The notes under the pieces were generated by a model. It was not told the origin of the DNA. It saw only the letters and a list, made by a program, of their open reading frames with translations, and did no database searches. A DNA stretch of 64,000 nucleotides from Microthyrium microscopicum (lineage: Eukaryota). Below, piece after piece: positions 5,590 to 64,000 of this stretch. Within the stretch, counting starts at the first letter, position 1, and every line of letters begins with the position of its first letter. The stretch is from positions 1,742,070-1,806,069 of the forward strand of contig MU004236.1 in NCBI GenBank assembly GCA_010405405.1, in the 5' to 3' direction. Made by a program: the position numbers and the translations under genes.

Positions 5590-8500
5590 TCAATCAGTCT
5601 GATCGGGTATGTCCTTAAACTTTAGCGAATCGAGCAGCCATTGGTTGACATATCCAAATATTTTATTCTCGGCTTCTTTGGTTTTGAGGAATTTACGATC
5701 TTCCTCTGGCTTCTCACGGTTCCTCGGGTCTCCTAGCTTGGTGCTTCCTATCATAGACAACCAATATGCCGCTGCCATCTCGGGTTGGGAACTTGTCTTT
5801 GGTAAAGCTTCGCACAGGATCCGTTCCGCCAGCCAATATAAGGAGCTGGCATCATGATAACCTAAATGCTCAAAGACACCGGACATGACGTGGGAGATTC
5901 GTGTGTATCGCGTGGCATTGGACAGTTCTGGCAGGCCGCGATGTTGCGCTCTGTTATCGAAATCAAAGACATTTGCCTCACGAATGAGATTCTGAGCATA
6001 CTATTCTCGGAACCTCTCTAGGTGGGCCTTGGTGTTCTTTGAAAAAAAGCAATGGCTCTCGCAGACGCGCTCTTTGTATTGATATCGCCAGTCATAGCGA
6101 AGCCACAAGGGGTACGATGCCCAGGAAACATATTCATTGACTGTGTCAACCGTATCCCAGTCATACAAGCAAACCACGTTGAGGTTTTCATCGAGCATGA
6201 TATTTTGGGCGTCGAGATCGTTATGTTTTATTTTGAAGTTTTCCTGTTGGGCCCCATCGGTGAGGGGATGAAGAGCTGCCATGACTTGTGCGGGAGTTTG
6301 GAATGGCTGGGGGCTCTGTCGAATTGCTTCCGTGCGACGATAATAAGCTTGTTCATTGAAGTCAGGCCATATGGTCTTCATAATGGCCGAGATCAGCCAT
6401 AATGACCCTGTCTGCTTGCGTTGCTCCACCGTGTTGTTTTCGCCACGAGGAATCCGCATCTCCATGCGAGCCCAATCATCCGCCAAACGATCTCCAAATG
6501 ATGCAAAAGAGGGGGAAAATTCTGGCAGTATATTAATTTCATGGTCTCCTTCATGAAAATAAGGTCCAACCTGAGGCTCAGACTCGTCGTCTGGGAAGTA
6601 GAGAGTTCCTGCAGCATTGAAGCTTCGCGCTCCCAGTCTACTGACTTTGATTGCTAGGCTTTCCATTATGTGCTTGCGTTTCAAATCCAGAGACTGATGG
6701 ACCTCCTGGCCAGGAACGAAACGATACCACTGCGACTGTATAGATTGACCATTGATGCATTGCATAATGGTAAAAGGGCGGCCGAGAACGTTGTCAAAAC
6801 CAGAATCATAAGCGTGAACCTGAGGAGCAAGCCCATAAGTCTTCCATATCCAGTTAGAAGTTCGAGCTTGCTGCTCAAGCTTGAAAGCATCTATCGCGGT
6901 CCAGCGATTCTTTGTTGCACGAATATTGACTCGAACGGCAACCTTAAAGGGATCTGCGAATGGAGATGTTGGAGCGACGACGGCTATGAACACTCGGTTA
7001 AAAGATCCCTTAGGCTTATTATCGAGGACGATAGCTTTGGCCTGGAAGACCTGAGACAAAAGCTGGCGAATTTCTTTGTCCTTGATATACCAGAGCTCGC
7101 CCCATTTGGTCTTTTCCTTTTCATCTGGGTCTATCGCTCCGTTTTCCAGTAGGCTATCTGGCAAGTCCTCATCGGAGTCCTCGTCGGAGTCGTCTTCGGA
7201 GTCGTCTTCGGAGCTACTTGCTGAGTCCTCCTCGGAGCTATCTGCAGAGTCTTGTTGTATATCCTTAGTCGATTCCGCTGCTGACTCCTGTGCTGGAACT
7301 TGCGTCTGAGTCTCGGAACTGTTTGAGCTATCGGTCAAGCTTAGCTCTGGCGATGAGTCTGACGACCTACCAGTGGATGGAATAGTTTTGAGACCGGGCT
7401 GCGCATCGTCGTTGTCCGGAATCGAGGGTCTGACTGTAGCCTCTGTGGATACCTTCACAGCAGAGCTCTTTGGTGGTGGAAGAGTTTCAAGGCCAGGTTC
7501 GCTGGTGACAAATTTTGAGCCTCCATGAACGGAGGAAGTAGTAACTGCATCGCCAAAGTGGGAAAGAGTGGGATCTGATTGGGCGACAATACCATCGCTG
7601 TCGCCTTGATAGGATAGCGTGGACGCGACAGGGTCTGGTATTGCTGGAAGTTGCTTCGATTCTTTAGCTTCTCGCTGCTCAGCTGCCAGTTGGGAGACCT
7701 CCTCTACTAGAAGTAGCGCATGAAGAAAGAGCCGAGTAGCCCTTCGAGCAGTTTCTTCTAATCGGCTCCCAGGATAAACGGCACATGATAGATCTTCATC
7801 GGAAACGGCAGTAGATGAAGAGATGCTGCTATAGCTATTCTGAGGAGACGTATCGCCAGAGACAGGGGGTGTTGGCGGCGCAGGGCCAACGAAGTTCCGA
7901 GAAGTCGTAGAGGACAAGTCGGCTGATTTCTCGTTTGGAGACCATTCTTCGGTACTTTGGATGATGTCACTCTCCAGGGGCTGTGCTATATCTTGCTTGA
8001 GCAGTGCGTCGCCAGAGATATCGCCTTCTGAGTTACATGGCTTCGACTCGTCTTCGGGTTTGGCAGTATCCTTGAGAGTTAGGCCTGCTTTGTCGATAAT
8101 GGGCGTTTCTGTTACACTTACAGAGGGTGTAGGAGACGTATTTTCTGCTTTAGTTGACTGCAGGATGGGCTGATGGGCTGGATCTTCTGTTCCATTCAGG
8201 AAAGGGGAGGGAGAGAATTCTTTCGCATCGGATTGTTGTAGAACGGATTGCTGGGGGTGTTGTTCGCTTCGTACTGAGGAAGGCACACGAGGTGATACCG
8301 CAGCTTCAATTGGTGGTAGCAGTGGTTTTACTTGACCAATTGGACTACATGATGTAGCAGGAGGGTATGTAGTATATACTGGTTCAGAGGGGTTTGGTTT
8401 GCGGAAGGAGCCTTGCGCTTTCTTGATCGCGTTTTGCAGCTTCTTAGAGGCGCCAGTGCGGAGGATCGAGAATTTTCCAGAGAGAGTCATTGTGAAAGGG

Positions 8501-50005: not shown

Positions 50006-50667
50006 GAAGGGCAACACGTCGAATTCGGGCCAAAACACGTCGGGACGCGTCTAGATAGTATTGGAATTGTGCCGAAATGTTCCGATGGGACGAGCTTTGT
50101 CGGTAGGTGGGAAGATTTGCTGTTGTGGGGTAGGAATATGCTGTGATGCTTGACGGTGTCAGAAGACAATTCAAGCAGGTGACTAGTCCGCGATGAAATG
50201 GTAGCTGTATAGGTGGATGTGAGGCAATGCAGTTGCAGTTGTTGGGAGGTAAATGCACAGGCCAGGTGGATGAGCTACAGGCGCGACCTGGTTTAGAGTG
50301 CCAAGAGTTGCTAAAAGCAGGCACGATTGGCGCGATTGGAAGGCGCGAGGGCGGCCTCACGTGCAGGGGGCGTCTGTCGCAACTTCCAGATCTGGTAATT
50401 CAATTCCAACTTCATCATTTCCTTCTTGGGCTCATTCGGATGTATTCCACTTGTTCCTGATTGGAAACATCAATGTTGAAATGATAATGAGCTGAGCAAC
50501 TGAAAGTCTGTGGGTTGCGGTTGACCGCATGAGAAGACGAACAATTCCCTTTACACCTACTGTCTGCAATCTACACCGCCCTTCCTCCAACTTAAAGCAA
50601 CTAATCACTTTGTCCCAACCCTCTAACCTCCCGTAACCTTGCTGCGCCGTCGCCATCAATCAAAACC

Positions 50668-51912
50668 ATGGATCAAAATGAAATCGATAAAGACGACGTC
50701 GAGCTCATGCTCAAGGCTGCCAAACTAACCGTGAATCCTCCGCCCAAAGATGAATGGCAAGAACTTATCGACGAGTTCCCTGACTCCACCTCTCCTCAAC
50801 AGTCAAGCCTAACACAGGATCCTGCCATTGAGACAACCCCCGAAGCCGTAGAAGAGCAACTCCCTGCTCCTGTCGAAGAGCATACCGCCCACCCATCTGA
50901 GGCTAGAGATTCAGACGCTGCGCCATCTTCTCCCAAAAAGCCATGGCCTACCAAAGAGGAACGCAAGCAGAAGAAAAAAGCCAAGCGTCAAGACAAAATC
51001 GATGCCATAAACGCCGAGTTCAAGCGCGCTCAGCACTACTTCGGCCTCCGCTGTCGACCAGAAGAAGCAGCACTTCCCGGGCCGCCAGGTGATGAGGAGA
51101 ATCAGAAGCCCGAGCTAAAGGAGATCGACACCGCTGTAGCCCGCGAGAAGATGCTCAGAGACGAGCTCTTTGAGCAAAAGTTCAGCATCGACAATCCGCC
51201 ACCATACGAGCCATCTACATATCCAATACTCGTCTCCGTTGATGTTGAGGCTTGGGAGCGCAACCACAACTGTGTTACAGAAGTCGGCGTATCAACTCTT
51301 GACACCAAAGTACTGAATGATATGCCGCCGGGTGAACTTGGTGCCAACTGGATGGAAACCATTGACGCCAAGCACTGGATCATGCTAGATTATATCGATC
51401 TCCACAATACCGAGTTCACCGCCGACGGTGATGGTAACCACAAATTCGACTTCCAACATGGTGAGAGCCTAGAGTTTTACATCGAGAAACTGCCTGCTCG
51501 ATTTAACGAAGTGCTTGAAACGGTCTCTGATAATTGGAAGCGCCCCATCGTACTCGTCGGCCATAATATCGCCTCTGATCTCAACTTCATTGACAATGTC
51601 TTTGCGGAAATTGAGCGGGCGGATGTGTTGGACACACAGCATCTGTGGCAAGCGCTGAATGATCACTCGCCGCAGGCCACGCAGGTTAGTCTAAAGAACG
51701 TGTGCGGTGATCTAGGCCTGAAGTGTACTGGCTGGCATAACGCGGGAAATGACGCAAGGAACACGATGCAGGCCTTGGTGGCCATGATGGTGTGTGAGGC
51801 GAAGATGCGGCATGAGATGGCAATGAAGAAGTATGCGCAGATCAAGGACGATGAGGATCAACCATCTGCGCCCCTACCAGCCGGCGTGTTGGAGGACGAG
51901 TCTTCTTTGTAG
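50668..51912 (+). CDS. DEDDh exonuclease-like protein (QDE-2-interacting protein QIP / Gfd2-YDR514C family)
   Basis: LVSVDVEAWE..HNCVTEVGVSTLDT, LVGHNIASDL, LDTQ, HNAGNDA motifs. Confidence 0.82.
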   Translation: MDQNEIDKDDVELMLKAAKLTVNPPPKDEWQELIDEFPDSTSPQQSSLTQDPAIETTPEAVEEQLPAPVEEHTAHPSEARDSDAAPSSPKKPWPTKEERKQKKKAKRQDKIDAINAEFKRAQHYFGLRCRPEEAALPGPPGDEENQKPELKEIDTAVAREKMLRDELFEQKFSIDNPPPYEPSTYPILVSVDVEAWERNHNCVTEVGVSTLDTKVLNDMPPGELGANWMETIDAKHWIMLDYIDLHNTEFTADGDGNHKFDFQHGESLEFYIEKLPARFNEVLETVSDNWKRPIVLVGHNIASDLNFIDNVFAEIERADVLDTQHLWQALNDHSPQATQVSLKNVCGDLGLKCTGWHNAGNDARNTMQALVAMMVCEAKMRHEMAMKKYAQIKDDEDQPSAPLPAGVLEDESSL

Positions 51913-52240: not shown

Positions 52241-55200
52241 CTACACTCCTGGTAAAGGATAGAAGTATGGATCATTAGGCCAACTACCAAACGTACCATC
52301 CTGTCCGATCCTGACCCACTGACCTATACTTGGAGTCGGCCCATCCAGTACAAATAACTTGAACCATCCAGGTGGGCAAACATGAGAGTTGGGAGGCGAA
52401 ACAATGGTGCATGTTGTTCCTGCACAAGAGAACTCTGGGAATATTGTCCGTTGGCCCATACTGTTCCCATGCGTCGAAGAGACGGCGCCTAACAGACTAA
52501 CACGTAGGCTCCCAGTGCTACCAGAAGTAAGCGTAAACTGGACCGATTGTCCATGAGCCCAGTCTTTCTCCGTGATGCTGAATGATGGACGAGGCAACCC
52601 AGAGCGAAGGTAAGCTGGGATGAACACCTCGACGCGATATTCTTCTGGATATGTGCCGGTTTGATCTTGTGGATCGGAGCCAGTGACAAGAACTCGTCCG
52701 TCCAAGAGGGTAATAGCTTCCGAATGATACATACGAGCGACGATCGTGCTGTTCATCTTACTCATTCGCTGACCAATTGGCTTGCTTGGGTCGTATAGTA
52801 CTGCGTCGTAGTTTGGATTTATGGCGAGCCCAAAGCCTGCGACACCTTGCATAGCTCCATTCAGGATTAAGTAAGTGCCGTCGGGTAATTCTGCTATGCA
52901 GCTCATCACGCGCTTGGACGGCATACGCTCGATTACCCAATCTGCACCATTCACTTCGGGTTGGGTAGATATACCTAAATAATTAGAACGGATTATAGTG
53001 ATGCAGACTGTAGAACTCACAATTGTCTATCGCCTCGCCTTGGCCTTGCGTCGATCCTCCGCAAATCAACACAGTGACAGGATCTGTATAAGGTGCTTTC
53101 TGGGGAAGTAGAACCATTGTGCCTTCCAATGGGTAGGTGCGCCCGGCTGTCAGATCATTGTTGACATTACCAGGAATGGGTGGCAATGTCCTGGTCGTCG
53201 CGAAAGTTTTCTCGTCCAAGATGATCGCTTCATTGAAGTAGCAAGCAAAGATCCCACCTGATGGAAGCACGGCCATGAAAGGGTAGAGGTTCCAGGGATC
53301 AGTTCTTTCGAGCCATTCCATGTACAACGGTGCTCCTACAGCTGGGAGTAGTTCCAAAGTCGGCACTGGGGGAGCATTGGATCCAGATTCACCACCTACA
53401 ATCAGAGCGGATCCGTTGGCCATGATCATAGCCGAAGGATACCATCTTCCATCCTGCGAGGCAAGAATATCGGGGTTCTCAAGCCAGTCGTTCGTTCCAT
53501 TGACGCCGGCTGATCCGTCAGGGGTATATAAGCGGACACCATAAGTAGACGTGCCTGACCAACCTCCGATGTTGAGTTGACGACCAAATTTGTCGGGGAG
53601 GGTGAGCGCTGCAGAACAAAAGACATCACTGGCAGGATGCATGACTCTCCATGCTGAGGAGAAATCATCAGTCAAGGTGAGGTCGAGCTCATATCCTCCG
53701 GTCGAATTGATTGCGCCGGTTCCTACTTTCTCCAGGAAGGTCACCTTGCCATTGACTCCAAGGGTCGTAATTAGCGGGACTACAACTCCTCCGATTAAGT
53801 TCTGATATTCACCCGGGTCTGTCGGGGTATTCCACACGTAAAATGGAGTGCCTTGCCAAGTGTAGTACGCAATTATTCGAGGACCTCCGCAGTATGTGGT
53901 CTGCATATAGTTAGTACAGGAAGACAATAACGAGAAAAGAAAATCATGAGCTTACCGCATTGCCAGAGCAGACAAAATTGCATTGGCCATCAGCCACAGG
54001 GGTCGAGCCGGACTCCACGAGGTTTGAAGGGTCTCCGCAATAACACTCGCTTCCATATTCTAATCCGGCAGAAGGATATCCGTATTTCTGACATTGCGCA
54101 AGACAACCGGCTACCGTAGTATTGGTGTCTGACACAAGTTGCCAGGGTAGAGCGCGCGCAGTGTTGTTATTGTCCGTCATGCAGCCAGAGTAAGTCCAGT
54201 TCCCTATTCCAGTCTTTTGAATCTGTGGCACAGGAAGTACAGGTACAGTCCCATTGATTGAGCTATACAATGACAGTCTATTTGGACCTGCGATGTGTTA
54301 GTCAACCAAAATAAAGAAGGAAGAATTTCATGGCGATAAACACATACCACCGCAAGTTTCAGTAGAATCGCCAGCACATGCTGTTGAGCAGTCCGACTCA
54401 ACGCCCGGTGGAGCGCCGTTGCGAATGAAGTTATCACAGAAGCATTGATAGCTATACTCCATGCCAGCAATCGAATAACCCAAGGCTTGACACTCTGCCA
54501 CGCAGCTGGCAATTGTCATACTCTGATCATCGGTCTGTTCATTGCCCATGCTGCGACCTAGATTATTGTAATTGTCCTGCCAACAGCCCTTGTAGGACCA
54601 GCCAGCAGGGATTCCGAGGCCAGTAGGAGTCGGAGGCGCGCTGGATGAAGTGGCAGAAGCTCCTGGTGCTGCGAGATATTGATAAGCATTCAGCCTAAAA
54701 GATCCACCGCACATTTCGGTTGCATTTCCTTGACAAGCCATATTACATCCCACGGATCCATCCGGTGCTGGGCCACCACCATTCCGGGGGGTAGAATCAC
54801 AGTAGCACTCATCCGCATATTCAACACCAGCGTACGTATAGCCCTTTGCAAGGCAAAGACCTTGGCATACTTCTACAGTCATCTTGACACCACCTGGAGG
54901 GTTGATTCCATTGGCAAAGGTTCGCTGGGCCGCGTCCGTCCAGCAACCAAGACTTTGCCAGCCAGTAGGGGCGGCTGACGAGGCACTCGAAGAGCTAGAG
55001 GATGTCATTGTCGCAGGTGACGAAATCGATGAATTAAATCCTATTGATGATGATGTGTTCATTGCGCTTGCCGAAGATGATATAGAGGAGTTGGAATAAT
55101 AGGACGAGGTTGGAGCGGTCAAGTTTGCGTAAGAGAAAATTGACGAATTCGACGTGATGTATGAAGTTGTAGTTGCCATGGAGGACGTAATTGTCGAATT

Positions 55201-58082
55201 GGGAGAGAATGTTGATGGAACTGTTAAACTTGCTGACGAGTATGATGGAATGATTGAAGATGAAATAGTTAGGCTTGATGCAGTGGTGGTTGAGGAATTT
55301 GCAAGCAAAGACAGCGACAACGACGAAATAGTCGAGCTTGCTGACGAGGCGAATGAAGAATTAGACATTATTGATGAGGAGGGAGTCATTAGACTTGCTG
55401 ATACTGAAGCCGACGAATTGGCTGCCATGACCGAAGAAGACGCAGTTGAGCTTTGCGAAAATGAGACTGAGGAATTGGATGACAGCGTAGAGGCTACCAT
55501 CAAGCTTGCCGAAGATGAAATTGACGAGTTGAAAAGGACATTCGATGAAGCAGACGCAGATAAAGAGCTCATGGAGGAAGTAGTACTGATCGTTGAGTTG
55601 GCCATGGCCAACGACAAGCTGCTAGACACAATCGTGCTTGATGCTGTGATAGAGCTGGAACTCAAGGAAGTAGAGTTACCAACGGATGAAGTTGTTGACG
55701 ACTCGGAAGAGCTGGTCAATACACTGGCTGAGGATGTCGCTGTTGAGCTTGTCGACGAAACCATGACTGTGGAGGGCACAATACTAGTCCCCGATGAGGT
55801 AACAGACGACGACGTTGAAGAGACAATGGCGCTGGATGACGAGATAGCGCCGTAACTATAAAGGTTCAAGCGGTCCGGGCCGCCGCACAGTTCGTTTCTT
55901 TGAAATGGTCAGTACTGGTACTTGTTATAGCCGTATATGACTTACTTGTTTCCATTGCATCCCATGTTGCATCCAACAGAACCGTCGGGTGCTGGGCCAC
56001 CTCCATTTCGAATTTGATTATCACAGTAGCACTCTCCTCCATACTCCACGCCAGCCAGTGTATATCCAGAAGAAAAACATGCGGAATTGCATAGCTCCAC
56101 AGTCATGCCACCATTTACAACACCAATCTGACTCAGAGATCGAGTGTTGACAGAGTCAGTATAGCAGCCCAAGCTAGTCCATCCAAGATTACTCTGTGCA
56201 GATGCCGAGGCAGATGGAGCCGATGAAGCAGAAGAGCTGGACCCGGCAGACGGTGCGACATACTGAAAGAAAGTCAAGCGGTCGGGTCCGCCACATATCT
56301 CCAGAGTATTTCCGTTACATTGCATATTACAGCCAGAATTGCCATCAGGGGCAGGACCACCGCCGTTCTGTATGCTGTTATCGCAATAGCACTCGCCGCT
56401 GTATTCAACCCCAGCAAGATTATAACCAGCAGCTTCGCAAGATGACTGACAGTTCTCCTGGGTCATATTTTGCGCGCCACCGAGAACTTGCATCCCCACG
56501 GACAGTGATCTCTTCGCTACAGAATCCGTGTAACAGCCGAGAGCTTTCCACACGGGTGTGTCCGGATTTGGAGCTCCAAGTTGATAAGTGTTCAGTCTAA
56601 ATGAGCCTCCGCAGTACTACTCAGAATCGTAAGCTACTATTGAGACACAAGAGTTAGAAAAGTAGAAATACTCTTACCTCAGACGGTGCTCCAGCGCAAA
56701 CCATATTACAGCCGGCTTCTCCATTGGGGGCAGGTCCATAACCAGCGCCAATTGCGTTATCGCAATAGCATTCTTGACCATATTCTACGCATGAACAGTC
56801 AGCATAAAATCAGCGCGAAAACTAGGCTGAATAGTTCAGCTTCTGCTGACATGGACTATGGAATACAGCGTTCGAGCAGAAAAATCGCTTTCAGAAAATG
56901 AACCACTGGCAGGGAGTACTCACCGACGCCGGCTAATGTATAGCCATTGCTTTGACAATAGCTCGTGCATGTTTCAACGCTGGTACTCGACGCACCGCCA
57001 GGTAATTGAGCGCCCACGGCCAAAGCTCGAGGGTAACCATCGCTAGATACTTGTAAGCACATTGACTAGGTACTGGTGCCTGTAGATGAACTTACGTATA
57101 ACAGCCGATGTATCCCCAATTGTTCGTGCCACCAAGTGCTTTCGGAGCAGCAGGCACAGCAACTCCAGGAGCACCACTATAGAATACTGAAAGACGATTA
57201 CCGGCCCCGCAAGGTTCCGTGGCTAAGAACCTATCAGCAAAAAATTGAGAAAAACCGTGGGATAAGTCAAGACAGTATGGAGACCCCCGAATGTGGTGCT
57301 CGCGTTCACTTCCTGGGCACACTAGTAGCCATTGAATACAACAGGGCTACTAAGAGTGTTGGGAATAGAAATGTGGCAACAAAATGTGCTCCGTCAGAGG
57401 GAAAGCTTACCATTGCCTCCACAGCTCATATTACAGTCAGTATCCGGCTCGACAGTTCGAATATTCAGGTTGCTACCACAATCTTGAAGATCCTGGTTAG
57501 CCCTGCAACTATATCAAATAGTGAGTTTACTTACAGCACTGGAGTTCGTTAGAACAAATTGAGAGGATTAATCACCCAATGATTAGTAATTGCGCGGTAT
57601 GACTGTATGATGGACCGCTCCCAATAACGCCTATATGTTGGAACATTATACAGGAGCCTTCCGGCATACTATCGCCCATGTCGAATGTGAAATGGGATTG
57701 CACGGGGGACTTGCCTCCTTTGAGTACTCAGTACCAGCATAAGCAAATCCTTTTGCAGAGCAAAAAGACACACATTCCTCGTTGGTCATGTCGTCTGCTG
57801 TGGTGGTAGACCCGGTAAGTGTTCGAGAGTTGACAGAATCGCTTCAAAGCATCAGTTCGTCAGTTAACATATAGACTAGAGTTGTGCGCACTAATAACAT
57901 CCATTATAATTATAGGCTCCAATCGAACTTGAAGGCGTCGCTAAAGCTCTACGGAAAAGAGTGCGTGAATCGGGAAGGGCGGTCTACGATTGTCAGTCCG
58001 TAGTTTGGAACCTATGATGGAATCTGCTTACTGCCAGAGAGTGTATGGACAGCAAAACTGTCACTGAAAAAAGATGGACCAT
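52241..58082 (-). CDS. WSC-domain copper radical oxidase (glyoxal oxidase-like, AA5_1) with about 7 WSC domains and a Ser-rich spacer; many introns
   Basis: Signal peptide [17 protein letters not shown]; repeated GCY.D...AG.EY..ECYC...C...C.G...E.CGG..RL WSC units; catalytic set DVFC, RWYP, RMYHS, STHG present. Confidence 0.92.
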
Positions 58083-58537
58083 TTTGAAATAATAGTCGGT
58101 TCGCAAGAAATGTAGAGTAAACCAGTGTTAGGCTGAACTGAAAGATTAGTAGTAAAGTATAGGAAAATAATTCATTGAAGGTACATTGATTGTAAAATGA
58201 GTGTAACGGTGTAAGGCACCAAATGAATTAACGACAGTGTTCAGGCGAGTGTGAGGAACGAAGATTCAATCAGAAATTGTGTTCATCGCGACAAGAATAC
58301 ATTTGCGAAGGCACAAGATACAGGATGGGTAGGAGTATTGCATTAGAACATGCAAAACAGGCCAGTCTCGCTTAGCTCCGAGTAGCCTCCAAGGTTCATT
58401 AACGTAGCAGACTCTACCGCTCCGACTGATCCGATCCAGACCTGGATATTGACCTACGCATTTGATCGCGCAGTCTACATTTTTGGCTCACATTGGACAA
58501 AGGCCCAGATGGAGCCGCAGCCCCTTTCAATGGCAGA

Positions 58538-59188
58538 CTATATTGGTTGGGAAACCGCCAAGGCGTAGATAGACGTGACAGGCTGATAGCCGTCAAAGAC
58601 GACGCAGCAGAGCAGCTGAGGAACGAACTGTTCTGAGTGTTTGTGGTGTGAAGTGGATGGGGCAAGGCTGTGATCCAGTATTTCCACAGTCAAAGCATCC
58701 ACTGACGTTCGAGTGTACCATGGCGCATACGGTAGATCTGTCGAGTCCCTACCAAAGGCGCTGGTCTGGTCCGCGAAGGCCTGAAAAGAAACGAAATCTC
58801 TAGGAATGGTGGCAGTCAAAGTGGTGGAGCTCATTTGGCCCGTAGCAGGATCAATAGCGCGTCCTGAGTCCTGAGGGCGTTCATGAAGAAAGACCTGGAA
58901 TAAGAAGTTGGCCATCACTGCGACCGACATGCCGCCCGGCGCCTGAACAGTCAAGGAGCCGGATGGCTGAGAGCCTGAGATTGCAAAGCTCTCTAAGCTC
59001 TCGCCAAAATATTCAGGGTCTTCTAGAATTGCGGCCATGAGAGATAACAACGGGTACCTGCAGAAGCGCCATGGAATCATGACCTCGTGAGGAAACTGTG
59101 CGATTTGACACTTCTCTTTGGAGATGTGTACAGGTGCCACAGATAGACAGACAACCAACCACAGCCTGGTTGTCAACCGCAGGCGCAA
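58538..59188 (-). other. Unassigned 216-codon ORF between the peroxidase and the copper radical oxidase
   Basis: Long open frame co-oriented with the neighbours (first ATG internal); no family motif recognised with confidence. Confidence 0.25.
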
Positions 59189-59622
59189 TCGGTCAGGCTG
59201 AAAGCTTTGACATTAGATGGATGAAGTTGCGCCAGAACTGATGGTTGATGGAGGGCGTTTTCTCCGTGTGCAGATCTTTGACCGTGGGGGTTGGCCAATG
59301 CTCAAGACTAGTGGTTTTTGCACTCACTTGGCTAATTGCGTTAGCGCCAGACACCCATGCACGCATTCAACCAATCATTGCTTACAGTGAATTATTACAT
59401 ACCTACTCTCGCACACTATCTGGCAAATTTTATTGTCTAACGGCCAGGCAGACTCTACGGTACGCCCCAAAGGACGGACAATATCTATGCCATTGCGCGC
59501 GAGAGAAGATGGCGTCAAACGATTTCGAAAGGGCATGGAATGATAAAGTGCAGTCATTGGAAAACATCGTAGTCGATGCTATGAACCGGGTGTTTGCCGA
59601 CTCAACGACAGTCTAGCGTTCA

Positions 59623-62600
59623 TTATTGCTTCGAATATAATGATAATCTATTACCGGCGCCACATAGTTCTCCGGCTCCCGCACATTTGAAATCACAATC
59701 AGACTCTGCAGCTATCGACGTCGTGTAGGCAAAGCTGTTGGCGCAGTAGCATTCTTGACCATACTCAGTGCCAAAGTAGTTATAAGACTCACAAAATTCG
59801 GCGCAAGACTCCACAGTCATAGCTGAGCTGTCATAGTAGAATGTTGCATTGAGCAATCGGCTGCCTGCAGAATCTGGATAGCAGCCAGCGTATGTGTATC
59901 CAGGGATGGTTGGGTTGACTGGTGTCGTTGGAATCACTGCATCGATGAGCTCAAACATGCTAAGCCTATTGCCTGCCCCGCAAGTCTCTGAGACATTTGC
60001 AACACAAGCCATGTTGCAATCTGTATCAGGCTCTATCGTTGTAGGATTGGCGAAACTGTTCCCACAGTAGCACTCTGCCGCATACTCCAAGCCGTAATAA
60101 GTAAACGAACTGGAGCTACAGAATTGCTCACAAACTTCATGAGTCATAGTGTTACCACCTGTGTAGCTTCCTTGTAGTACTCGATTGCTTACAGTATCGG
60201 AGTAACAACCCGTATAACGGTATCCTCCCGCAGTGGTCGGCCGTTCGTAAAGACTGAGACGACTTCCGGATCCACACAGGTTTGTCTGATTTCCGGAACA
60301 GCTCATTGAGCAATCTGACTCTGGAGCTTGTGTGCTTGCAGCCGCCAAAGAAGCTCCGCAGTAGCACTCTCTTCCATACTCCATACCAAAGTAAGTCGGA
60401 CCCGGTCCACAAAACGCTGCGCAAGTCTCTGGGGTCATAGTGTTGCTCGCTGTTGACGCTCCAGCGAGTGCTCTGGGATTAAGCGGATCCGTGAAGCACC
60501 CCGCGTATTGATATCCGGCTATGGTTGGATTGACTTTGGGCACGTACAGTGCGTTCTTATAGACGCTCAAGCGATTGCCATTTCCACAAGTCTCCTCGAC
60601 TTCGCCTCCACAAGGCATAGAACAGTCGCCTGACCGAGCTGGGCTTCCGGTATTTGTACTGCCACAATAGCATTCAGCGCCGTACTCAAGTCCGAAGAGG
60701 GCGAAACTTGAGCAGTAGGTCGAGCACTTTTCTATGGTTTGTGCCGAGTCTCCACTATAGTCCCCGACAATACTGCGATTTGACGCCGAGTCAACGAAGC
60801 ACCCGAGATAGGTGTATGCTGTAGACGAAGGAGAGGCCGATGAAGTAGCTGAAGTTGCTGTTGCCACTGCGACAGAGGAGGAGGCCGGAATGGCTGATGA
60901 CGTAAGGCCCGACAAAGACGCCAAACCTGACGACGACGGAGAGATCGTCGAGGAGAACACCGAAGAATAGATTGCCGTACTCAAATTTAATGCTGCACTA
61001 TATGTGGCTATAGGTGAACTTGATGTAGTGGATTTGTTGAAGACAGCAGACGTCGATGCTAGAGTTGTACTTGGCATGGAAGATGTGTTGAGGTAGGAAG
61101 ATATTCCACTTGAAGCGGAAGAAATAGAGCTCGACAAAGATGAGCTCGAAATATTCGTAACAAAAGATCCGCAGGTTGCACTCAAGTAATCAAGACCTTG
61201 AAAAGTAATAGATTGCGTAGCTCCGTTTATGTCGAGCCGAACTGAATTTCTTTGGGCTGCCGGAATGGCATAAGTGGCTGAAAATATTAAGTAGGGGCCA
61301 ATTGTGCTGTTTGAAGTCATTGAAACACTTTTGAATGTCAGAGAAGGCACTGGAACTGGTAGTCTTGTAACTGGGATGGTGAGATTTAGAGACGGTGTTG
61401 GGCTAGATGCTGTGGTAAGGACAGCAGCAGTTATTGTGAGAGCCAAATTGCCGGAGGAATCTGGTGTTCCACTAACACAACTTTGAGCACGTTGATATAG
61501 CACCGTATCTTGAACCGGAAAGCCCAGACCATTGTTGTTGTTGATGTGGTTTCCTCCATTACTGAATGTGACAATCACACGGAAGGAAGATATGGATGAG
61601 CTTGCAGGAATTTGAGCTGAGAATCCGTAGAACTAAAGTGCAATAGTCAGTGACTCCGGTTTGGAAACATGAGTATAGGATCTAAAGACGTACCGCAAAA
61701 GTGTTATCAAAACCAGTAGCAGCTCCAGTGAATGCTGTGTTGATGGTGCATCCACTGCATGCGGCACCAGAACGGTCATTGTAAGCCAGTTGAACCGTCG
61801 AAATTTGGTCGAAAGGAGCAGTGGTCGTCAAAATCCGAATCTCCCCACTAAAGATCAAAGAAGTGCCATCGCCGCTTATGGCCAATTGAAGATCTACTGG
61901 CTTGACCTCGTAGACGGTAATGGGATCAGTCAGAGCAACGCCAGTGGGAACTATTTCGATCAATTGCTGAAGAACAGTCGCGCAGGTGCTACGATAAGTT
62001 CCAGGATCCGCCATTTGCTTGATGGTAACATTGTTGTCCGCTCCGAAGATTACTTGGTCAGAGCATCTACCAGACGCATGACAATTTCCGGATAGCAGTG
62101 GATCTTTGCTGGTTCCAGTTGTGTATTCCACTGCTATCTTTTCATCATATGCTCCAGTTGTGCTATCAAAAGTCTGCACATCTCCTGGATATGTGCCAGC
62201 TTTCACAATGAGCGGGAAATCAACGGAATGGACTCCGCCTAAGGAGTGTCCGCAAACGACAAGTTGTATCATCGCCGCATCTGTCGCGAATCCCATACGT
62301 TGGAATTGGTTGCGAAATGTGTCGATCGAGTTTTGAGGTTGTGGTACGCCGGAAGGCCCATGGGCAGTTGCATCAATTCTTCCAGTTCGAATCTGGACAA
62401 TGGGTCCACCGCAAGCTCTGACGGCTGTATATACTCCGAGTGATAGCAAATCGGCTATGGATGATCTCGACGACAGGAAAGGCGCAAGATGAACGAGTGT
62501 AGAATTGAAGGCTGCTCCCACGTTATCGGCTCCGAAGACTCCAGTGAGCTCGAACATTAGAGAAGCATCCATTCCGCCAATGCCCTTGTTGACTCCAACT

Positions 62601-62848
62601 GCACTTCCTGGCGAAGCATCATGAAATGCTGATCGGAGCCATTCTGCAGCGGCATTCCGTCCTGCTCCATCAGCGGAAGATCCGCAGGGAGTTACTGGCC
62701 CCGAGAAAGCACGAGCGCGATATCCTGTATTAAGAAACATTATATCCTCCAATTCGTCGAAGGCAGATGGCCATGTTGGAGCCGTTGAGGCGCGAAACGG
62801 TAACCAGAGAACGCACGAGGCCAGAATCAAAGAGAGTGAGGAAGGCAT
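59623..62848 (-). CDS. Secreted heme peroxidase (peroxidase-catalase superfamily, hybrid-B type) fused to 4 C-terminal WSC domains
   Basis: Signal peptide; distal EWLRSAFHDA, GGMDASL, GRIDAT, proximal CGHSLGGVH; intron 61693..61633 joins TFA|FYGF in frame; Ser/Thr linker then four WSC repeats. Confidence 0.9.
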
Positions 62849-63691
62849 GATTGAACGAGTGACTTGAGTTAGAAGTGAAAACTAAAATTCTTCAGAGAGT
62901 GAATATACCCATCATGACTATTTTCTACTAAGAATAGAGATAATCATGAACGAGCGTGCATCACGACAACAGGAGATAAAAATCTGGATTTTGAGTTAAG
63001 TCGGACCAACTCCGTAGTGCGAATTGCTAACATGGCGTGCATGGCTAGAGTATCCGTAGCGCGTGCGACACTGCCTGCGATGGGAACGGCGACTATGTTG
63101 AAATCAGAAACGACATATGGCTATCTCCCCTTAATGCTTCATGTTGGCCAGAACCCATTCGTGGAGTTTTTGAAATTGTCAACTTACAGGGGGGAGATAG
63201 GCGTTGCCAAAAATGGACAATGGACAAGCCGAGAAGAATCCCATGAAGAGTGCAGTAGGTATTTGAGATGTGGTCGTGAACATGGCTTGCGTTGAAGGTG
63301 AGGTTGGACCCAGGGGTTGGCACTAATCGCTAGCGTCACACTAAGCCTTGCTTTTTTTGTGGCCCGGGCATTTCCACTTCACCAACTGGCAACCACCAGG
63401 TTGACCGTACCACGTTCGACATCCGGTCTAAACTTGTAGGTTGCAACCAATATTATTGTGCGCACAAGACCAATCTGGCATCATTTTATTCATGTTCTTG
63501 GAATCCTCCATTCTACCAAGACTTCATGGATCCAACGCTTGACTGGAGAATCAATTATCATCCCTTATCATCCTTGACATTAATAGGTACTCTCGTCGTA
63601 GAGTTCCTCCAGTAGTATCCGTATTATATGTCCACCCAATGAGAACCCGGATGACGCCCTTTCCGTCCAAGTGATAACGAATGGAAAGAGC

Positions 63692-64000
63692 TCAACTGCA
63701 CTTGCCTTGCTGCCACATTTTTACCGATTTCACAATCATTCCGGAATCTGAACCTTTTCCCCAGGTTGGGTACCATTGATCTTTGGCTAGAAACTTGTTA
63801 GGCCTGAGCATGATACTGGGATCGATGAAAGTCTGAAATACCTTTGTAAAAGTCTGCGCCTGCAGTAGTTCCATCATCAACCCAAGGCTTTGATCCAGTA
63901 CCGTCTCTGCCAAGCATTGATTAGTATGTACATAAGTTGCACGTCCGAGGTAGCTGTTGACTTACGGGAAGTACCCATTGCGGCCTCCAACTGCAACATT
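63692..64000 (-). CDS. GH16 beta-1,3-glucanase / glucan-binding protein, C-terminal exons (5' end outside window)
   Basis: Spliced reading NVAVGGRNGYFP|DGTGSKPWVDD...DFYK|AKDQWYPTWG...MIVKSVKMWQQGKC, the typical fungal GH16 (GNBP/laminarinase-like) C-terminus. Confidence 0.82.

Follow-up and report, generated by a model that had tools for sequence, protein, structure and literature searches.

Two neighboring redox genes with WSC arrays

The window analyzed here is a 64,000-nucleotide stretch of contig MU004236.1 (positions 1,742,070 to 1,806,069, forward strand) from the fungus Microthyrium microscopicum. Near its far end, two adjacent genes on the minus strand encode a heme peroxidase of the Hybrid B group and a copper radical oxidase of family AA5_1, each bearing an array of WSC domains, and this pairing recurs, patchily, in other fungi. 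A third minus-strand gene, GH16-like, lies beside the peroxidase gene. The original prediction had named these three neighbors, and both Pfam matches and the splicing of contigs from a public run, X1, bear it out, with only the last 64 codons of the GH16 gene falling inside the window. Open reading frames (ORFs), taken as stop-to-stop pieces, were searched with Pfam, and 7 of the 11 pieces matched. Spliced models of the peroxidase and the oxidase were built by hand on GT/GC-AG borders, and protein searches with exons returned M. microscopicum sequences of 100% identity. Run X1, the source of the spliced contigs, is not recorded as RNA; that it is RNA is a guess, and it was used only for the joins that its contigs show.

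The peroxidase coding sequence (59623..62848, minus strand) specifies 1054 residues in two exons, 62848-61694 and 61632-59623, stop codon included. The deposited protein, P0001, has the same length as the hand-spliced model and is 100% identical to it over the first 385 residues, and X1 record 2 (59453-63217) lacks the intron (61633-61693). A hydrophobic N-terminus (62848-62783) precedes the heme peroxidase domain, the two together occupying 61859..62848. They are followed by a middle domain specific to Hybrid B (approximately residues 331-560) with a Ser/Thr-rich linker (residues 561-657, 50% Ser plus Thr; together 60817..61858) and by four C-terminal WSC domains (59635..60816). The peroxidase family PF00141 matches exon 1 (ORF piece 61682-62881) with an E-value of 5e-19 and P0001 with an E-value of 2.3e-18, while the WSC family PF01822 matches in four stretches (E 1.8e-71) within ORF piece 59623-61632. 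Solved class I peroxidases match the protein weakly (E 4e-5).

Hybrid B peroxidases are described as having a distal motif, R-x-x-F-H-D, a proximal motif, L/M-V-A-C-G-H-T/V, and two second-domain motifs found only in this group, [LIV]-S-F-x-G-x-[IV]-R-[VI]-R-T-T and [LMV]-T-[IV]-[TS]-A-A-V-R-... (passages of PMC8945051). The window peroxidase carries RSAFHD at residues 72-77 as its distal motif and LVVCGHS as its proximal motif, the latter departing from the consensus by two conservative changes. Residues R72, F75, H76, D77, C199, G200, and H201 are invariant in an alignment of 25 relatives (A1). In the middle domain, LIFSGEIRILTT fits the first group-specific motif at 10 of 12 positions, and LTITAAV fits the first seven positions of the second, the rest of which diverges. 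Of 120 listed relatives, 118 combine PF00141 with PF01822. Clade 8 of Hybrid B is distinguished by multiple C-terminal WSC domains (passages of PMC5571214), and the layout given for the Hybrid B WSC clade by Zamocky et al., an N-terminal peroxidase, a middle domain, and multiple C-terminal WSC domains, is that of the window protein (passages of PMC5571214 and PMC8945051). By its motifs and domain order, the window peroxidase is assigned to this multiple-WSC clade.

The oxidase coding sequence (52241..58082, minus strand) has 13 exons and specifies 1621 residues. A single 7.7-kilobase (kb) contig, X1 record 1, crosses all 13 exons, and all 12 introns are absent from it at the predicted borders. 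One exon is a 4-nucleotide micro-exon, TGCT (57535..57538), which restores the conserved Cys-x-Cys of the first WSC domain (WSC1). In X1, the two sides of the joint 57482->57715 are separated by the letters AGCA (plus strand), and the joint has the ends CT..GC; the intron that precedes the micro-exon (57539-57714, minus strand, 176 nucleotides) is of the GC-AG type, with a GC donor. [quoted passage not shown] One open exon spans the end of WSC4, the linker, and the sequence on to WSC6. The catalytic module is matched by PF07250 (Glyoxal_oxid_N; E 2.4e-23, 52983-53951) and PF09118 (GO-like_E_set; E 1.3e-24, 52241-53026). Pfam detected five WSC domains in three other ORF pieces, and a further scan added three partial WSC exons; the spliced model contains exactly seven. 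The counts first proposed, four WSC domains in the peroxidase and about seven in the oxidase, agree with the spliced models. The deposited oxidase, P0121, is 868 residues long; it begins at a Met inside the Ser/Thr-rich linker and has no hydrophobic N-terminus. Because a single X1 contig covers all 13 exons, the 1621-residue form with seven WSC domains is the supported one, and P0121 is truncated at its N-terminus. The correction from 868 to 1621 residues adds the hydrophobic N-terminus, four WSC domains, and the 299-residue Ser/Thr stalk.

When compared with solved structures, P0121 matches FgrAldOx, an aldehyde oxidase from Fusarium graminearum (Protein Data Bank (PDB) entry 9N3U, a 2026 crystal structure), with an E-value of 1.1e-200; no AA5_2 structure matches the oxidase at E<=0.001 in the PDB search. 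Residues C1179, W1237, Y1238, Y1460, H1461, and H1546 of the oxidase align with C450, W509, Y510, Y738, H739, and H826 of FgrAldOx. They correspond to the two Tyr and two His ligands of the copper, the Cys that contributes to the Cys-Tyr cofactor, and the second-sphere Trp beside the cross-linked Tyr. AA5_1 enzymes bearing WSC domains form one clade and prefer small aldehydes (passages of PMC13094651). The window oxidase is classed as an AA5_1 enzyme with a predicted activity of the aldehyde/glyoxal type. The alignments with FgrAldOx and with the 25 peroxidase relatives agree with the earlier statement that both redox enzymes keep their catalytic residues; both active sites are intact. Given their hydrophobic N-termini, both products look secreted.

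Linkage of the two genes in other fungi

The closest association of the two enzymes is found in Talaromyces atroroseus, in which one deposited protein of 1536 residues (UA08_07338, P0037) contains PF00141, four WSC domains, PF07250, and PF09118. The peroxidase comes first, followed by two peroxidase-type WSC domains, a Ser/Thr linker, two oxidase-type WSC domains, and finally the AA5_1 module, an order that matches that of the window genes; the last two WSC domains are orthologous to WSC6 and WSC7 of the window oxidase. Both enzymes occur in one protein in 1 of 125 peroxidase matches and in 1 of 120 listed oxidase matches, and this is the same protein. The best 150 of 879 representative proteins, all of 1119 residues or fewer, contain no further fusion. 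The junction in P0037 (approximately residues 720-810) lies directly after a WSC repeat whose end resembles both peroxidase-type and oxidase-type ends, as expected from in-frame recombination between repeats, with a CGG..RL.LY-like motif that, by our own reading, is common to both parents. The oxidase N-terminus and first WSC domain are missing.

This junction favors an explanation of the adjacency as a by-product of structure, in which recombination promoted by WSC repeats would bring such genes together, exchange their repeats, and at times fuse them, with no functional coupling involved. Also in its favor, oxidase WSC1 (57914-57182) is nearest to peroxidase WSC3 (60222-59953), at 57% identity, versus 35-46% to the other six oxidase WSC domains. 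However, the same WSC1 type heads AA5_1 proteins of other fungi. Its best match outside the window is residues 43-130 of P0199 (53%), and 12 of its 20 nearest domains come from oxidases. The likeness is for this reason an old feature, and a recent exchange of WSC domains between the neighboring genes was rejected. Nor does the 64-kb window contain any further WSC-coding sequence. We regard the by-product explanation as very unlikely.

Linkage elsewhere was judged by proxy from protein tables, using the locus tags and the contigs on which proteins are listed in the best-120 lists for each enzyme. In Malbranchea cinnamomea, the peroxidase (tag _8183) and the oxidase (_8180) are both on a contig listed at 96,808 bases, and in Aspergillus tanneri, EYZ11_012008 and EYZ11_012005 are both on a contig listed at 12,895 bases. 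Altogether, 4 of 13 named species with a protein in both lists show linkage, while chance placement would, by our own estimate, link well under 1% of species. A second proxy consisted of 80 metagenome loci with a Hybrid B peroxidase, with flanks of up to 10 kb, which form 59 distinct groups at >=90% nucleotide identity; these loci were probed by tblastn with the oxidase catalytic module. It is found at 4 of the 80 loci, all of one group (L004, L006, L027, and L058) whose nearest named relative is a lichen fungus (75%). Here, the AA5_1 gene lies approximately 7 kb upstream of the peroxidase gene on the opposite strand, so that the two are divergent. By tblastx, L004 and the window share nothing but the two redox genes, whose orientation relative to each other differs, and the pair thus persists without surrounding synteny. 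Three further ORFs of L004 were scanned separately from the neighbor set described below. One of them (6562-8067, minus strand), between the AA5_1 and peroxidase genes, is flavin amine-oxidase-like (PF01593, E 3e-10) and may encode another H2O2 producer.

The neighbor set itself comprised 109 of 236 extracted ORFs of at least 170 residues, equal to 11 of the 23 long peroxidase loci. No recurrent partner oxidase of another kind is found near Hybrid B peroxidases in these 11 loci. Apart from the flavin amine-oxidase-like gene of L004, the only redox neighbors among the scanned ORFs are in single loci: an Fe/Mn superoxide dismutase (L033, 7140-7748), a large catalase (L038, 15740-16879), and an AA14 lytic polysaccharide monooxygenase (L013, 19129-19902), none of which recurs. 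In two Dothideomycete-like loci, L001 (14056-18506) and L013 (13711-18198), the peroxidase is followed downstream by genes for EAF and ribosomal protein S15, a synteny that is absent from the window.

In our reading, which we consider to stand at about even chances, the peroxidase and the oxidase form a surface-tethered couple that serves as source and sink of H2O2 and in activation, with the GH16 protein not a part of it. A number of observations weigh against this reading. An AA5_1 gene lies upstream in 1 of the 19 distinct groups with at least 8 kb of upstream sequence and downstream in 0 of the 16 with at least 9 kb of downstream sequence. The unlinked loci include two of the closest peroxidase relatives, the L001 (58%) and L008 (57%) groups. 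The listed peroxidase and oxidase are on contigs of different length in Gyalolechia sp. 2, Claussenomyces, Agyrium, Xylogone, Cadophora, Cladobotryum, and Metarhizium rileyi (eight named species when Coccidioides is included), and in Ustilaginoidea virens they share a chromosome at a distance of approximately 1000 locus tags. These species count as weak evidence, since the best 120 of 1099 oxidase relatives were considered and paralogues beyond them are outside the list; in Coccidioides, the listed proteins are likewise on contigs of different length but come from different strains, so this case is not evaluable. The three Eurotiomycete cases may go back to one inherited event. P0037 is either a true fusion or a merged gene model; in both cases, T. 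atroroseus has the two genes side by side in one orientation. In the window, the genes run head-to-tail, peroxidase before oxidase, both on the minus strand with separate upstream regions, and these regions have no 11-mer or longer word in common, with 0.5 expected by chance. Expression evidence for the pair comes from run X1 alone, which covers both genes and in which contig depth cannot rank them. Finally, the role proposed for Hybrid B enzymes is defense against peroxide (passages of PMC5571214), and constructs of FgrAldOx and CgrAldOx with a single WSC domain failed to bind any of six polysaccharides, among them laminarin (passages of PMC13094651). A complex prediction of the oxidase catalytic module, heme, and peroxidase domain scored 0.00 against a mark of 0.34, which speaks neither for nor against contact.

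Several of these points would be expected if the two proteins are mere neighbors that work apart, their adjacency in a few lineages being left-over synteny or chance, an alternative to which we give a substantial, though minority, probability. The peroxidase would then remove external peroxide or oxidize phenolics for defense, and the AA5_1 enzyme, with another activator, would detoxify reactive aldehydes or shape the hyphal wall. This view is supported by the lack of AA5_1 within 10 kb at 76 of the 80 peroxidase loci, by the heterogeneous and mostly housekeeping neighbors in the 11 scanned loci, by the lack of an upstream motif common to both genes, and by the argument for oxidative-stress defense in the Hybrid B literature; in addition, roles of AA5_1 enzymes in morphology and virulence have been reported without a partner peroxidase (passages of PMC13390370 and PMC13610856). 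However, the linkage is seen in at least three configurations or lineages: the genes are in tandem in the window, either fused or in tandem in T. atroroseus, and in L004 divergent with an intervening gene. It is accompanied by no further synteny, a situation that chance would hardly produce for two families of low copy number per genome. Both the recurrence of the pair and the variety of its arrangements are too great for chance, and the pair is absent from most lineages. The original prediction of a linked oxidase-peroxidase unit holds insofar as linkage recurs far above chance placement and one deposited protein holds both enzymes; it does not hold as a general rule, for the pairing is patchy and not conserved across Pezizomycotina.

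Tethering is the second element of the coupled reading. Other WSC domains bind chitin, beta-1,3-glucan, or xylan (including Oide 2019, as summarized in passages of PMC11611005). Because some WSC domains bind, while the single-WSC constructs of the closest relative do not, tethering to polysaccharide by the seven- and four-domain arrays is plausible by analogy. The earlier claim that the WSC domains bind beta-glucan thus stands for some members of the family and fails for the constructs from the closest solved relative of the oxidase.

The GH16 gene and the sequences around the pair

The GH16 gene enters the window by its 3' end (63692..64000, minus strand; exon pieces 64000-63966, 63906-63842, and 63786-63692), which comprises the last 64 codons and the stop codon of a laminarinase-like gene. 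Most of the gene lies beyond the window, and the full protein, P0240, has 412 residues; the hand-spliced 64-residue tail reads the same as its C-terminus, and the introns 63907-63965 and 63787-63841 are absent from X1 contigs. The tail pieces alone gave no Pfam match at E<=1 and no PDB match at E<=10, and the GH16 identity accordingly rests on the whole protein. P0240 matches PF00722 (E 3.9e-12), contains EIDIME, which we read as the E-x-D-x-x-E catalytic motif, and has laminarinases as its best solved relatives (E ~1e-20). Its N-terminus reads as a membrane span and not as a signal peptide.

The original prediction had made this gene the third member of a module in which beta-1,3-glucan, exposed or supplied by the GH16 enzyme, is what the two redox enzymes are co-anchored on and act upon. 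The three genes are contiguous and co-oriented in the window, spliced contigs of X1 cover all of them, and some WSC domains do bind chitin or beta-1,3-glucan. There is also a loose bacterial parallel in Streptomyces, in which GlxA, a glyoxal-oxidase-like copper radical oxidase, is reported to depend on the peroxidase DtpA and to act at the hyphal wall beside the glycan synthase CslA (PMC4736821 and PMC11022532). That bacterial system has an oxidase bound to the membrane and an unrelated peroxidase of the DyP type, lacks WSC domains, and resembles the window pair in logic only. Beyond this one genome, however, the third gene drops out. By tblastn at E<=1e-5, a relative of P0240 is found within 10 kb at 0 of the 80 metagenome peroxidase loci, no PF00722 protein is present among the 109 neighboring ORFs of 11 peroxidase loci, and the two redox genes are all that L004 and the window have in common. 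The GH16 protein is, moreover, read as a type-II membrane protein instead of a co-secreted enzyme, and the AA5_1 enzymes characterized so far act poorly on carbohydrates and favor small aldehydes (passages of PMC13390370). A three-gene module, for which adjacency in this single genome is the sole support, is in our estimation highly improbable. The GH16 protein looks like an ordinary membrane-anchored beta-1,3-glucanase-like neighbor outside the redox unit, and its gene like a chance neighbor. With respect to synteny of the trio, for which the protein tables and the 80 metagenome loci served as proxy, the pair recurs in some fungi, whereas GH16 never appears in the metagenome loci.

Between the GH16 stop codon and the peroxidase start codon lies a spacer (62849..63691, minus strand) holding the peroxidase promoter and 5' untranslated region; the X1 peroxidase contig reaches 63217, and the ORF pieces of this spacer have no Pfam match. 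The 1.5-kb spacer from the peroxidase stop codon to the oxidase start codon (58083..59622, minus strand) includes the peroxidase 3' untranslated region, to 59453 according to X1 records 1 and 2. The oxidase contig of X1 extends approximately 1 kb above the oxidase start codon, through 58083-59130. This stretch may be a long 5' leader, or it may be a neighboring or orphan gene merged into the contig; because contigs of adjacent genes can merge, we do not read it as a proven leader. The sole long ORF of the spacer (58538-59212, minus strand) matches no Pfam family, and its Atlas entry, which starts from residue 59, has a poor predicted fold, with a predicted local distance difference test (pLDDT) score of 0.31, and no relatives. 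A DEDDh exonuclease-like gene and an ING-domain gene lie below the oxidase. Past 51900, the X1 oxidase contig runs on for approximately 1.5 kb and enters the DEDDh gene, which is convergent (50605-51912, plus strand); this suggests overlapping 3' ends or an assembly merge.

Related oxidase-peroxidase pairs and the proposed coupling

Coupling of glyoxal oxidase to lignin peroxidase was reportedly described by Kersten in 1990. In Phanerochaete, an AA5_1-type oxidase feeds H2O2 to a secreted heme peroxidase and is activated by it, and WSC-bearing cro genes are linked to peroxidase genes, in P. carnosa within the lip peroxidase cluster (PMC3463431). Phanerochaete is, however, a basidiomycete with class II ligninolytic peroxidases that lack WSC domains and a multi-gene lip cluster, whereas the window, from an ascomycete, has a Hybrid B peroxidase, WSC arrays on both partners, and a two-gene unit.

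The nearest counterpart among ascomycetes is the tandem pair of a peroxidase and an AA5_2 alcohol oxidase (AlcOx) in Colletotrichum and Magnaporthe, in which the peroxidase activates copper radical oxidases (Bissaro et al. 2022, passages of PMC9770985). As in the window, the gene of a secreted heme peroxidase adjoins that of a secreted copper radical oxidase, and both would follow one proposed logic, in which the oxidase produces H2O2 and is activated by the peroxidase (passages of PMC9770985 and, for Sclerotinia, PMC13610856). The enzymes themselves differ, as had been anticipated. The oxidase is AA5_2 in the tandem pair and AA5_1 in the window; the peroxidase belongs to the class II "tandem peroxidase" clade there and is a WSC-bearing Hybrid B enzyme here. 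The arrangement differs as well, since the tandem genes lie head-to-head with a common promoter, whereas the window genes lie head-to-tail with 1.5 kb from stop to start codon, and the tandem pairing is near-universal within a genus (in the passages concerned), whereas the window-type pairing is patchy. Tandem peroxidases are stated never to occur with other types of copper radical oxidase (passages of PMC9770985). A Hybrid B/AA5_1 pair would be a novel form of the known oxidase-peroxidase pairs. The full-text literature search, with subscription journals and supplements outside its coverage, returned no report of such a gene pair. Neither "glyoxal" nor "copper radical" is found in PMC8945051 (0 occurrences), and the passages on Hybrid B in that paper and in PMC5571214 do not mention a neighboring copper radical oxidase.

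The characterized AA5_1 aldehyde oxidases FgrAldOx (9N3U), CgrAldOx, and VdaAA5_1 have the catalytic module, the copper ligands, the consecutive Trp-Tyr, and the N-terminal WSC domains of the window oxidase (passages of PMC13094651 and PMC13390370). They carry three to five WSC domains, whereas the window enzyme has seven, split four plus three by the 299-residue Ser/Thr stalk. The passages that treat these three enzymes do not describe a partner peroxidase, and for the copper radical oxidases of Verticillium, partner peroxidases were sought and no clear one was found (passages of PMC13390370). Horseradish peroxidase activates an AA5_1 enzyme slowly (PMC13610856), and the secretome of Phialocephala scopiformis contains a WSC heme peroxidase together with five copper radical oxidases (bioRxiv 10.1101/354365).

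These comparisons allow us to outline how a coupled pair might work. The WSC arrays and O-glycosylated stalks would hold both enzymes on one polysaccharide surface, either the fungus's own wall or the plant litter that serves as its growth substrate. There, the oxidase would convert small aldehydes and O2 into acids and H2O2, and the peroxidase would consume this H2O2 on the spot. By one-electron oxidation, the peroxidase would also maintain the active Cu(II)-tyrosyl radical form of the oxidase, a step modeled on lignin peroxidase with glyoxal oxidase and on the tandem peroxidase with the AA5_2 alcohol oxidase. Both the anchoring on glucan and the activation of the oxidase by the window peroxidase are what we infer from these systems. 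More broadly, WSC-type AA5_1 oxidases of ascomycetes might have Hybrid B WSC peroxidases as their natural partners and activators, in an old unit kept linked or relinked in Dothideomycetes, Eurotiomycetes, and lichen-forming fungi and brought into one polypeptide in T. atroroseus by in-frame WSC recombination; we offer this generalization tentatively and consider it rather doubtful.

The role and the natural activator of AA5_1 oxidases beyond white-rot fungi, and the function of Hybrid B peroxidases, are two orphan problems. The pair is of moderate interest because a recurrent gene pair and one deposited fusion protein link these two functionally orphan enzyme groups in a single testable hypothesis. 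If the broader generalization is true, the two enzymes would constitute an autonomous machine, anchored at the surface, that both generates and consumes H2O2, and would correspond on the AA5_1 side to the AA5_2 pair of alcohol oxidase and peroxidase.

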